The position numbers were made by a program, and so were the translations under genes. Shown here one piece after another: positions 59,247 through 64,000 of a stretch of 64,000 nucleotides of DNA. The stretch spans positions 160,001 to 224,000 of the forward strand of contig CM000433.1 in assembly GCA_000165345.1 (NCBI GenBank), given 5' to 3'. How positions within the stretch are numbered: the first letter of the stretch is position 1; every line of letters starts with the position of its first letter. The notes under the pieces are model-generated. The model ran no database searches. It was not told the DNA's origin and saw only the letters and a list, made by a program, of their open reading frames with translations.

Positions 59247-62105
59247 ATGGAAACCCAAGCATCAGAAAATAACTATTCTCATAATTTTCAAAAAAGAATC
59301 ATGCTATGTGAAGACCCATCAGAGAATTTGACAAATCAGCTTATTGAGGAATTAATAGACCCCACAATATTTGTCAAAAGCTGCATTTTAAGGGGTTCAA
59401 AACATATTTCAAAGTGTATCGAGAATTTTGAAATTGCAACCAAGTATGTTAATGATCAATTAGAAAAACAGATTGTTGAATTAGGGCACATTAATACAAT
59501 TCAATGTATGTGCAGTGATATTGTAAAACTAGATAAATGTTCTAAAAATATTGGAACATATTTTTCCGGCTATAAAAGCTCTATTGAAATTGACACAATA
59601 CCAATCGTTCAGAAATATGATAGTATCAAAGATAATATACTAATTTCAAAACGTATACTTGAGATCCAGGGCCTTTGCAATAGAACAATTGAATTTATTT
59701 CGTTGATTTCTAAATTAAAGGCCCACTTTGGACTAAAAAAATCTGATAATGAAGAACAATATGAGAACTTCTTTATGAATTTTCAAAGTGGTATTCCCGA
59801 TTCAATTGATATTTATAAAACAAGTAAAATAATTGTTGAATTAGAAAGTATGATTTACTTTAACGAAGAAAGCGTTGCCGAATCTGAAACAAGTGAAAGG
59901 AAGATAAATAATTCAACAGTTTCAAGCCTTGAATTCCTCGAAGTTCTCCAAGAAGATATTAAATGGTTACGTAAAATTAGTGCGATATATAGACAAAATG
60001 GTCATAAAAAATTGTTGAACGGAATTGAGGAGCTGGATAATGCTTCAATTTATTCAGGCTGCGTAATTTTAGATCAATTTGGTGAACTATGGGAACATAT
60101 TGATATAATTGTTGAAGATGTAATGTTGAAAAGGCTAAATCATACGTTTCAAGTCTGTAACTTGCAAAAATGTATTGAAAAAGTAGATAAATCAGATGAG
60201 GTTTTTGCAGTTAGTATTCAATATGCCACTTTTTCTATACTAAAACTAGTAGAAGATGCTCTTAATCAAGTAATATTGGGTCTAAAACAACTAATCTGTA
60301 TTCATGATACATTGATTGAAAATAAAATCAATAATTATCAAAAAACTAATCAAATGAATTTTGTAGATGCATTTTGGGAAAAATGCCTATTATTTTTTGA
60401 AAGTGTGTTCAATAATATTTATTCTATTAACTCTAAGAACCCAAATATTCATCAAATTTCGTTTGGAAAAGAGATTATTGTGAATTCATCTTTAAAGCTC
60501 GAGCAATTATTTCATTTACTAATTAACTGTTATCCTGATATGTCGAATATGTTTAAAATTGCAACAAAGAATATTAAAGCATTGTTATCCTCTTCTTCAT
60601 CCAAGGTTATAGCTAATTCTATTGTTAACGACAAAAAAATATTTAATAGTATTTCAAAAATTAGAGAAGTGTATCTATCTTCAATTATAGATAAATTTAA
60701 TAGACTTTTTGAAACCATTATACCAAACAAAAATAATTTGTCTGATTCGTATGAAGAAATAAGCAGTCGAATATCAGAAATTACTCAAGAAATAATCGAA
60801 GAACTACGGAGAACAAGATCATGTGATGAAATTTATACTCAAATATATGATATTTTTAGAAATGAACTATTATGTTTCATGGTAACATGTGAAACAATCA
60901 TTCAACCAGAAGGAGGAATAATTGCTCATTTAGAAATAACCGAAAGCCAATCCAATCACAATTTTCTTATTGAAAGTAATGATTTAAATATTAAAAAAAG
61001 ATTACCTTCCCCAACTCAATCCCACATAATAAATGCAAATATTTCTATAATCGCAGCAATTTTGTCGATTGAAGTCAAGAAAATTTACGAAGTTGAATTT
61101 ATAGACAATGTTGATATTATTGAAAGAGATAGAATAATTGAGTTACTTAAGTCATTACAATATAAATCCGTTGGAAAGTGGTTTTCGCATACGTCCTTGG
61201 CAATTTTAGAATTAAACATTACAATTAACTACAATAAAAGCAATTCCAGATCAGAAATAAAAGACAATAGATTAAAAATTGGCCAATATTTTGTTACGCT
61301 TTCGCAAGAAATAGTAACGAATTTCATACAAAATTGGACTCCTCTATTGTATAATCATGATTTTTGGAGTAAATGTTACGTGTTATTTTGCAGAAATATA
61401 ATAATCATTTTTTTGGTTAACTTTACTTTAAGAAGCGAATTGGACGAAGAGAATTGTTTTGAAATAGCTGAAGAAATTGTTTCTCTTCAATCTATTATAT
61501 CCCATTTTATTTCCGATAATAACATCAAAAATCTATTGTCTAATGATATCAAGATGATCCAAGATTTCCGAAGAGTTCTTTTTTCAGATATAAAATCGAT
61601 TAGGGAAGCAATTAACTTTTCTATTAATACGAAAAATAGAGAGCCAGACAACAATGAGTTGTTATGGAAGTCTATCAATGATTTGGACAATATGTTATTT
61701 ATCGTGCACATTCTTAATCGAATATTTTATATCTTTAATAAGTCGAATCATTTTTCAATTCAAAGTTTTACTGAGCAATCTAAAATTTCAAACCCTCAAT
61801 TGTCAAATATCTTAAATTATTTATTATTTATTAAATTTAATAAATACCCAACGTGTGAATCAGATACAGACTTATTTATTATTTTCAATGTATTTAAGCA
61901 AAATGTAACTACTAGCGAATATATTAGTGATCCAAAAATATTACCATCAAAAATTCGAAACTATATCGATACAATTAAAGAAGAATTGAAAGCCTGTCAT
62001 TCATGTTTAGATGGTTTTATAGATATAGAGGATTTAGAAGTGATATTAAATTATATCGAGGAAAATTGTCAGAGTTACAATTGCCGCTCATATTGCTCTA
62101 ATTAA
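59247..62105 (+). CDS. Large helical protein, probably a CATCHR-family vesicle-tethering complex subunit (COG5-like), tentative
   Basis: A 952-aa single exon. The N-terminal LIEELIDPTIFVKSCILRGSKHISKCIENFEIATKYVNDQLEKQIVELGHINTIQCMCSDIVKLDKCSKNIGTYFSG resembles the conserved N-terminal coiled-coil block of COG/exocyst subunits. The rest is alpha-helical with no sharper signature. Confidence 0.4.
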   Translation: METQASENNYSHNFQKRIMLCEDPSENLTNQLIEELIDPTIFVKSCILRGSKHISKCIENFEIATKYVNDQLEKQIVELGHINTIQCMCSDIVKLDKCSKNIGTYFSGYKSSIEIDTIPIVQKYDSIKDNILISKRILEIQGLCNRTIEFISLISKLKAHFGLKKSDNEEQYENFFMNFQSGIPDSIDIYKTSKIIVELESMIYFNEESVAESETSERKINNSTVSSLEFLEVLQEDIKWLRKISAIYRQNGHKKLLNGIEELDNASIYSGCVILDQFGELWEHIDIIVEDVMLKRLNHTFQVCNLQKCIEKVDKSDEVFAVSIQYATFSILKLVEDALNQVILGLKQLICIHDTLIENKINNYQKTNQMNFVDAFWEKCLLFFESVFNNIYSINSKNPNIHQISFGKEIIVNSSLKLEQLFHLLINCYPDMSNMFKIATKNIKALLSSSSSKVIANSIVNDKKIFNSISKIREVYLSSIIDKFNRLFETIIPNKNNLSDSYEEISSRISEITQEIIEELRRTRSCDEIYTQIYDIFRNELLCFMVTCETIIQPEGGIIAHLEITESQSNHNFLIESNDLNIKKRLPSPTQSHIINANISIIAAILSIEVKKIYEVEFIDNVDIIERDRIIELLKSLQYKSVGKWFSHTSLAILELNITINYNKSNSRSEIKDNRLKIGQYFVTLSQEIVTNFIQNWTPLLYNHDFWSKCYVLFCRNIIIIFLVNFTLRSELDEENCFEIAEEIVSLQSIISHFISDNNIKNLLSNDIKMIQDFRRVLFSDIKSIREAINFSINTKNREPDNNELLWKSINDLDNMLFIVHILNRIFYIFNKSNHFSIQSFTEQSKISNPQLSNILNYLLFIKFNKYPTCESDTDLFIIFNVFKQNVTTSEYISDPKILPSKIRNYIDTIKEELKACHSCLDGFIDIEDLEVILNYIEENCQSYNCRSYCSN

Positions 62106-62140
62106 AATTAATTCTTTTAGGTGCTTAAAAAAAAGTGAAT

Positions 62141-64000
62141 ATGTTATCGGAATATTCAGATACATCTGACAATGAGATGGATCTAAACGATCAGGTATGT
62201 TATTTTTCTTATGAAGATATCTTTATTACTTTTTTTTTAGATTATTAGACAATTGAAAAATATTCATTTCGATCCAATTAACTCAAACATAAATCAAGAT
62301 GATAAATTAAGCAATATTATTGAGCAAAATATCATTAAAGACTACAAATATGATTACTATCGTGGAATAGTCGATGTTACCTTAACAAGCGATATTAATA
62401 AGAATGATAATATAAAAAAAGAATTGCTGGAATTAGGATGGGTCAATTCAGTCAATATTTTCGTTGAAAAAAAAATAGAAAGTCGCAAAAATGCATCAAT
62501 AGAAGATAAAAGGAACGAAATTTTATTATCTCTTAGTAAGGTTATCGACCCTGACCTAAATAAAGATATTGTTAGCTGTGGATTCGTTAAAGATTTATAT
62601 TTCGATCCAGAATCATCTGAAGTATCGTTTACTTTGGAGCTAACAACGCCAATTTGCCCACTAAAAGATTTATTTGAAAAAAGCTGCACTGAAATCATTA
62701 AAAATGATAGAATTTATGTGAAAGAAGTTAATATAAAATTTACCTCTAAATCAAGCAAAAAAAATCAAATAATTTCCAAAGAGAAAACACATAAAAATCT
62801 TGAAGCTGTATCTAACATTATCGCAATTAGTAGCTGCAAAGGAGGTGTTGGTAAATCCACTCTAGCTGTAAATATTGCATTTACTCTAAGTCAATTGGGA
62901 GCGAAAGTTGGTATTGTAGATTGTGATTTATATGGGCCAAATCTTGAACAACTTGTTCCTATGGAATCAAATACGGTATTTTACAAAAAACCTAGCAATG
63001 AGACAGAAGAAATAAGGACCAAACTAAACAAAAGAGGACTTTCTAAGACAAATAATGCAATAATACCAAATAACAATTTGAGAGAGGGCTTTATTCCTCT
63101 TATATATAAAGGCGTGCAATTAATTAGCTATTCTTATTTACTTAATACGAAAAGTGATTCAAATAGTTCAAGTAAGGTTTCAAGTATTTTGAGAGGACCA
63201 ATTGCAGGTTCAATTGTTACACAACTAATTACTGGAACTGTCTGGGAAGATCTTGATTACTTAGTTCTTGATTTCCCACCAGGTACGGGTGATATTCAAC
63301 TTTCAATTGCGCAATCAATAGCAATTGATGGAGCAATAATAGTTACAACCCCTCAAGATTTAAGTATTGCAGATGTGGAAAGGGGAATACATTTATTTAA
63401 TAAATTGAATATCCCAATTTTAACAGTTGTTGAAAATATGTCTTACTTCATCTGCGATGGATGCGAAAAGAGACACGAGATATTTTCTAAAGGTGATTTT
63501 TCCTTAATAACTGAGAAATATGGGCTCGAGCCAAACTTCAATTTTCCTTTATTTTCAAACCTTTCGAAATGTAAATTTCATTCCAATTCAAATGAGGTTG
63601 ATTTTCCATATGTTATTGCTGCAAACAAAAATGACAGTGTATATTTAGAGTTTGTAAAATTGTCAGAATTTATAGCAAGAAAATTGTCTAAGAATAGATA
63701 CAGTGACTATAAGCCAAATTTTGAATTTGATAATAATAGAAAGATAGTTATCTGTCAAATACCGAAAGATATTAAGGAAATTTTTGTACAAGAAAATACA
63801 ATTGATCCATTGGTCAAATTTAATGTTTCATATATTGATATTAGGAAATTATGTAGATGTGCAATATGTTATGATCCTGGGAAGGCTCGATTTAATGAGA
63901 CATATGAACCATCTACATTATTAATTGACCAAATAGAAACTATGGGCTCATACGCTATTATGATTAATTGGTCAGACGGTCACACAAGCATAATTTCATA
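62141..64000 (+). CDS. HCF101: HCF101-type Fe-S cluster assembly P-loop NTPase (DUF59/MIP18 + Mrp/NBP35 ATPase + DUF971); partial, runs off the window end
   Basis: Exon 1 is 62141..62194 (MLSEYSDTSDNEMDLNDQ), with a GTATGT donor. The 46-nt intron ends at ttttttAG. Exon 2 starts at 62241 and is open to 64000. DUF59 reads ILLSLSKVIDPDLNKDIVSCGFVKDL..TLELTTPICP. Mrp reads SSCKGGVGKSTLAVNIA, DCDLYGPN and the CxxC FICDGCEKRHEIF. DUF971 reads RKLCRCAICYDP...INWSDGHTS. Confidence 0.8.

Follow-up and report, generated by a model that had tools for sequence, protein, structure and literature searches.

The window analysed here, a 64,000-nt stretch of contig CM000433.1 (assembly GCA_000165345.1, positions 160,001-224,000 of the forward strand), ends in a two-exon gene (window positions 62141-64000, plus strand) that is, near certainly, the single-copy Cryptosporidium parvum ortholog of HCF101, of the apicomplexan 'cytosolic' type. 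An annotation of the gene already exists, and the HCF101 identity of its product in Cryptosporidium has already been published (Pyrih 2021, PMC7980591; Renaud 2025, PMC11838916). The presence of HCF101 in a plastid-less organism has also been explained in print, by a cytosolic paralog linked to the cytosolic iron-sulfur (Fe-S) protein assembly (CIA) pathway and not by a plastid relic. As a discovery the gene matters little. Its residual value lies in a two-exon model that corrects a 611-residue partial one, in a non-canonical L-x-W tail and in a cryptic extra DUF59-like domain, and these three features offer concrete constructs to anyone who examines whether HCF101 is a vulnerability of Cryptosporidium linked to Fe-S or to translation.

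When the spliced product encoded within the window (604 residues) was scanned with Pfam, three domains, DUF59, the Mrp/NBP35-type P-loop ATPase and DUF971, were detected above their gathering scores and far beyond chance (Table 1), which bears out the tri-domain architecture read in the first-pass annotation, made from the letters alone. That reading had allowed that the rest of DUF971 might be lacking downstream; in a fresh Pfam scan of the full-length protein the DUF971 match covered residues 544-603 (E 3.7e-11), so that all three domains fall inside the window and the domain is complete. The best NCBIfam models were those of the ApbC and MrpORP Fe-S carriers. Furthermore, the TTPICP, KGGVGKS, CDGC and CRCAIC motifs, as well as His599, were all intact and conserved. 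In the Mrp/NBP35 ATPase family, the CXXC motif, here CDGC, bridges a [4Fe-4S] cluster at the dimer interface (Renaud 2025, PMC11838916). The DUF971 region could be aligned to the DUF971 entry 3luu of the PDB, and its cysteine pattern is consistent with the survey of the CxCxxC motif given by Pyrih 2021 (PMC7980591). The AlphaFold2 (AF2) model of exon 2, based on the 121 aligned sequences, had a mean predicted local distance difference test (pLDDT) value of 84.4, with low values confined to linkers and lineage-specific insertions, and the closest solved folds were ApbC (8zkc) and Cfd1 (6g2g, target-normalised TM-score 0.80). Two apicomplexan-specific insertions were found at the same positions as much longer insertions of the Toxoplasma protein. 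The first is predicted to be disordered (pLDDT <50 at residues 272-292, i.e., residues 254-274 of the model), and in the second the confidence was merely reduced (block means 64-78). From its N- to its C-terminus, the full product consists of an acidic tail, a degenerate Cys-less DUF59-like domain, DUF59, the Mrp/NBP35-type ATPase, DUF971 and a Leu-Thr-Trp-COOH tail.

The next evidence comes from the family placement. A homolog search against 5.8 billion proteins listed 120 matches, and in a precomputed Pfam list DUF59 and ParA were present in 120/120 of them and DUF971 in all but two, a truncated C. felis model and a Toxoplasma entry; a fresh Pfam scan did find DUF971 in the Toxoplasma protein. 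The C. felis ortholog (P0006, 547 residues) stops after the ATPase domain (...HYVVSK), with neither DUF971 nor the Trp tail, and this shortening probably reflects a gene model that was cut short, or a frameshift in the assembly, and not a real loss. The C. parvum protein itself was missing from the matches, and its 90% cluster, which also contains the neighbouring COG5 proteins, was represented by one of these. The same cluster includes a C. meleagridis model of 1570 residues (POM85681.1), long enough to suggest that the COG5 and HCF101 genes are fused in it; this model likely bridges the two neighbours, and the missing self match looks like a clustering artefact. A neighbour-joining tree was built from 159 columns of the ParA core of 19 tri-domain proteins, together with PDB-derived ApbC, Cfd1, two archaeal Mrp and a HypB-type outgroup, and the support of the deep clades was counted as unrooted splits in 100 bootstrap replicates. 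The tri-domain proteins were split from ApbC, Cfd1, the archaeal Mrp proteins and the HypB-type sequence in 100/100 replicates, and Cryptosporidium grouped with Toxoplasma, Gregarina and three other Trp-ending proteins in 93/100, so that the comparison called for in the first-pass annotation placed the protein with the HCF101 type. Identity over the ParA core was 53-62% to HCF101-type proteins vs. 43% to Cfd1.

The known members of the wider family resemble the C. parvum protein to different degrees. Cfd1, NBP35, ApbC and Ind1 share the ATPase fold, the deviant Walker A motif and a CXXC in register; however, Cfd1 and Ind1 have neither DUF59 nor DUF971, and Cfd1 and ApbC lie on the opposite side of the 100/100 split. 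NBP35 carries an N-terminal ferredoxin-like four-cysteine motif. Such a cysteine cluster is absent from C. parvum HCF101, in which residues 1-130 contain no Cys and the first one is found at position 131. Bacterial DUF59-Mrp-DUF971 proteins (from the Planctomycetes-Verrucomicrobia-Chlamydiae group and others, e.g., P0102 of Lentisphaera marina) have the same domains and cysteine motifs, with 40-42% identity in the 10-sequence alignment, but are 440-460 residues long and lack the N-terminal extra domain, the insertions and the Trp-ending tail, the length being otherwise the same.

The gene model is supported at several levels. An in-frame TAG precedes exon 2, whose first in-frame Met lies deep within the ATPase domain, and therefore the splice is needed, exon 1 being the source of the start codon for the N-terminal 250 residues. 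The gene starts with the ATG at position 62141, and exon 2 is open up to the window end, beyond which there is only a 25-residue tail, YNNLIKIFVNKEDEVKLCQNELLTW, ending in L-T-W. The public C. parvum annotation has the same two-exon model (L001 8895-10830, 629 residues), and the splice used here reproduces its product exactly, whereas the older Iowa II model (XP_626042.1) is a 611-residue partial that lacks exon 1. The full-length protein is identical to QOY41525.1 ('MRP like MinD-like ATPase [Cryptosporidium parvum]'), and window bases 59247-64000 showed 0 mismatches over 4754 bases to three C. parvum chromosome records; hence, the guess of a Cryptosporidium-like organism, made from the letters alone, was right. 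The exon 1 peptide and the exon length are kept in C. ubiquitum and C. serpentis, and the peptide is also found in C. canis and C. felis. An intron after codon 18 was present in 3/3 species examined (46 nt in C. parvum, 45 nt in C. ubiquitum and 60 nt in C. serpentis), and the gene order COG5, HCF101, a 361-residue gene and PRP1 is kept in the same three species. The orthologs of C. ubiquitum, C. canis and C. felis are 79%, 70% and 66% identical to the C. parvum protein, and that of C. serpentis, from the gastric clade, 47-48%, with the same architecture. An open frame, a conserved intron and synteny, and identities from 79% down to 47-48% within the genus are as purifying selection would give.

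The context that accompanied the first reading, a plastid carrier in plants and a cytosolic, CIA-linked protein in apicomplexans, agrees with the literature. In plants, HCF101 serves photosystem I and ferredoxin-thioredoxin reductase in plastids (PMC11838916). The chloroplast protein (that of Arabidopsis, with the Apostasia protein P0094 as stand-in) shares with C. parvum HCF101 the three domains, the Walker A motif and the TTPxCP cysteine, at 37% identity. This architecture and this identity are what a relic of a plastid-type chHCF101, left from a lost apicoplast and now functionless or decaying, would display. Nevertheless, such a relic is effectively refuted. The plant protein has a transit peptide, and no transit or bipartite signal was found in the C. 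parvum protein by a composition test; the plant-type proteins form a separate clade with 88% support, outside which Cryptosporidium groups with the Toxoplasma and gregarine proteins; and C. parvum keeps two motifs, CXXC and CxCxxC, that are lacking in P0094, in which the first Cys of the CXXC is gone (D-I-D-G-C) and the DUF971 motif is replaced (D-R-S-A-Q-S). In addition, the open frame, the conserved intron and synteny and the pattern of identities within the genus argue against decay. Both cysteine motifs are kept by the Cryptosporidium, Toxoplasma, gregarine and bacterial proteins; P0094 is mislabelled 'NBP35' in its source record.

Upstream of the genuine DUF59, the C. parvum protein has an extension of about 100 residues that has no counterpart in the homologs of gregarines, Toxoplasma, plants and bacteria, being found in Cryptosporidium alone among the retrieved sequences. 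A profile built from the extensions of eight Cryptosporidium orthologs was compared with the DUF59 profile, and 75 columns could be aligned with a probability of 95.9% (E 6e-9). The score of this alignment was 46.4, vs. 10.7+-2.2 (maximum 19.2) in 100 column shuffles of either profile and 8.5-9.2 in the reversed-profile controls. Furthermore, the hidden Markov model of the extension matched, in register, the genuine DUF59 of HCF101 proteins from outside Cryptosporidium (P0077, 6.6e-10; Gregarina, 8e-8; P0020, 3e-7). The AF2 model was confident over the extension (10-residue block means 67-94), with the helix-strand-strand-helix-strand order of the genuine DUF59, and when the extension was modelled alone (pLDDT 72) the top eight Foldseek matches were DUF59 proteins, with query-normalised TM-scores of 0.58-0.67 and weak E-values (0.009-0.08). 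The TTPxCP cysteine is lost (T-S-D-I-N-K-N in C. parvum), the segment contains no conserved Cys, and Pfam PF01883 reached no threshold on it. A Pfam match of the extension to NCH1 (E 0.005) was rejected as sub-threshold noise in favour of the profile-profile result. These results gave good support to the view that the extension is a degenerate second DUF59-like domain and not a presequence. The HCF101 papers cited here do not contain this domain, which is a small addition to the known picture. It is conceivable, if doubtful, that Cryptosporidium has a four-domain HCF101 variant in which a genus-specific, Cys-free DUF59/MIP18-like module, arisen by internal duplication, might act as a built-in surface, for docking or as an adaptor, toward a client or, by imitating CIA2, toward CIA1. 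The setting would then be an organism with a pared-down CIA pathway. Any distinct or docking function of the extra domain is speculation.

The function of the protein is best discussed in relation to Toxoplasma gondii HCF101 (TgHCF101, TGGT1_318590), a cytosolic protein that is found in association with the CIA targeting complex and is a direct binding partner of ABCE1. When TgHCF101 is depleted, both ABCE1 and translation go down, and its C-terminal LEW, a targeting-complex-recognition signal, is required (PMC11838916). Both proteins have the order DUF59, Mrp ATPase and DUF971, the CXXC and CxCxxC motifs, no targeting peptide, an ATPase insertion at the same place, a tail ending in aliphatic-x-Trp and a position in the same ParA-core clade (93/100). 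In contrast, they are 36% identical, the tail reads LEW in Toxoplasma and LTW in Cryptosporidium, the Cryptosporidium insertion is much shorter, and TgHCF101 is devoid of the extra degenerate N-terminal DUF59-like domain. In C. parvum the Leu-Thr-Trp falls shortly beyond the window end; its Leu and its final Trp do not vary among the full-length Cryptosporidium orthologs, and an L-x-W end also occurs in Gregarina, but the plant protein and most of the bacterial ones have none. At the other end, the first-pass annotation had read the N-terminal peptide correctly and seen no obvious presequence: the net charge is -6 over the first 18 to 60 residues, exon 1 contains neither Arg nor Lys, and no plastid transit, bipartite or signal-peptide-like stretch was present in the first 60 residues by the composition test (maximum 10-residue hydropathy 0.7).

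By homology to TgHCF101 and to the Mrp/NBP35 family, from which the mechanism is extrapolated, C. parvum HCF101 would stay in the cytosol and would dimerise in an ATP-dependent manner, holding a [4Fe-4S] cluster bridged by two CXXC motifs. It would then dock on the CIA targeting complex (CIA1-CIA2-MMS19) via its C-terminal aromatic residue and carboxylate, and might hand its clusters to late cytosolic clients, among which ABCE1 is the best candidate. Alveolates lack the Yae1-Lto1 adaptor (PMC11838916), which HCF101 may replace in this group. The CIA1 gene of C. parvum is cgd1_2230 (PMC12674569). A C. parvum homolog appears in Figures 1A and 4A of PMC11838916. As a whole, a cytosolic ATP-dependent [4Fe-4S] carrier that works at the CIA targeting complex on late clients such as ABCE1 is the probable role of the protein.

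Several points weigh against this role. The literature searched yielded no experiment on the Cryptosporidium protein, so that localisation, cluster binding and clients are extrapolated from Toxoplasma at 36% identity. The targeting test was a count of charge and hydrophobicity and not a trained predictor. The tree contained a single Cfd1 and no NBP35 or Ind1 sequences; published trees with NBP35 and Ind1 outgroups do place Cryptosporidium in HCF101, with C. muris in PMC7980591 and C. parvum in PMC11838916. The LTW end, which reads LVW, LIW or LNW in other species, does not fit the [LIM]-[DES]-[WF] consensus at its middle position. In the binding of the targeting complex the terminal aromatic residue and the free carboxylate dominate, the aliphatic residue at -2 helps and the one at -1 is dispensable (bioRxiv 10.64898/2026.04.06.716496), and hence the non-consensus Thr may be no strong objection. 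Finally, apicomplexan HCF101 was placed in a 'mitochondrial' mHCF101 clade (Pyrih 2021, PMC7980591), and the Plasmodium ortholog has been treated as a CFD1 equivalent that acts early with NBP35 (PMC11476691).

The last of these points leads to an alternative in which HCF101 would substitute for Cfd1, forming a hetero-complex with NBP35 for the de novo assembly of [4Fe-4S] clusters, and would have no late role at the targeting complex. Cfd1 is absent from the stramenopiles, alveolates and rhizaria (SAR), and in C. muris only two members of the family, Nbp35 and HCF101, are listed (PMC7980591); Shrivastava 2024 pointed out the CXXC and ATP motifs of the Plasmodium HCF101, which was treated as the CFD1 homolog (PMC11476691), the CXXC and Walker A motifs of C. 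parvum are intact, and its predicted fold can be superposed on that of Cfd1 (6g2g) with the TM-score given above. However, the ParA core separates from Cfd1 in every bootstrap replicate, NBP35 is on the mitochondrion in Toxoplasma whereas HCF101 is cytosolic, and TgHCF101 is a partner of the targeting complex and of ABCE1 and needs a C-terminal signal of the client or adaptor type, whose Leu and terminal Trp are conserved in Cryptosporidium. We therefore regard an early scaffold as unlikely. Far less probable still is the import of the protein, as a member of the mHCF101 clade, into the Cryptosporidium mitosome, where it would act like Ind1 or the late carriers of the iron-sulfur cluster (ISC) machinery. 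Pyrih 2021 grouped the apicomplexan and ciliate proteins with a mitochondrial paralog that is localised to mitochondria in diatoms and Tetrahymena (PMC7980591), and the C. parvum mitosome hosts ISC machinery, according to a reference cited in PMC11476691. The same study, however, tabulates the protein of C. muris, by which it represents Cryptosporidium, under the cytosol and shows TgHCF101 to be cytosolic (PMC7980591). Moreover, the strongly acidic N-terminus (net -6, and devoid of Arg and Lys up to residue 18) has no amphipathic or hydrophobic leader, the extension is a folded DUF59-like domain in place of a presequence, and a free C-terminal Trp, as a putative signal, suits a partner of the cytosolic CIA machinery.

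Table 1. Features of the C. parvum HCF101 gene and its product (positions in the window; residues of the 629-residue protein).
Feature	Position	Strand	Residues	Remarks
Exon 1	62141..62194	+		18 codons, MLSEYSDTSDNEMDLNDQ; net charge -6, no basic residues
Intron	62195..62240	+		46 nt, GT..AG, phase 0 after codon 18
Exon 2	62241..64000	+	19-604 of 629	cut by the window end; 25 codons and stop beyond
Cryptic Cys-less DUF59-like domain	62177..62474	+	~13-96	spans the intron
DUF59 / FeS_assembly_P (PF01883)	62514..62702	+	110-172	E 2.9e-10; 40.7 bits vs. cutoff 23.5
TTPICP of DUF59	62643-62660	+	153-158	Cys157 invariant
ParA/NUBPL Mrp/NBP35-type P-loop ATPase (PF10609)	62808..63572	+	208-462	E 2.5e-68
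Deviant Walker A, CKGGVGKS	62835..62858	+	217-224	invariant in 10 aligned, conserved in 121 sequences
Apicomplexan-specific insertion 1	62970..63095	+	~262-303	within the ATPase domain; gap in plant and bacterial rows
PPGTGD			364-369	motif
CDGC, CXXC motif	63453..63464	+	Cys423/Cys426	in register with the CXXC of ApbC, archaeal Mrp and Cfd1
Apicomplexan-specific insertion 2	63573-63620	+	~463-478	just after the ATPase domain
DUF971 / GBBH-like_N (PF06155)	63816..63992	+	544-602	E 7.3e-11 on the windowed protein
CRCAIC, CxCxxC putative metal-binding motif of DUF971	63852..63869	+	Cys556/558/561	aligns to CPCAEC...SDGH of PDB 3luu
His599 of DUF971	63981-63983	+	599	conserved; partner of CRCAIC

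Only 35 bp (62106-62140) separate the HCF101 start codon from the stop of the upstream COG5-like gene, and therefore the promoter or transcription start of HCF101 must overlap the 3' end of the coding region of its neighbour; no obvious E2F-like box was present in this spacer. The upstream open reading frame (ORF) (59247-62105, plus strand, 952 residues) is a 'hypothetical protein' in C. parvum and is named COG5 in the C. meleagridis and C. hominis annotations. Its Pfam match to COG5_C was below threshold (E 0.0018, 18.7 bits vs. cutoff 24.7), so that it would be a very divergent COG5. A competing antisense ORF (62357-62698, minus strand, 113 residues) lies wholly inside the strongly conserved HCF101 coding sequence; it was rejected as a shadow ORF and is most likely functionless. 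RNA scans of the whole window (1-64000) detected no tRNA genes and no Rfam families at the gathering threshold. The GC content is 27-38% throughout the 64 kb.

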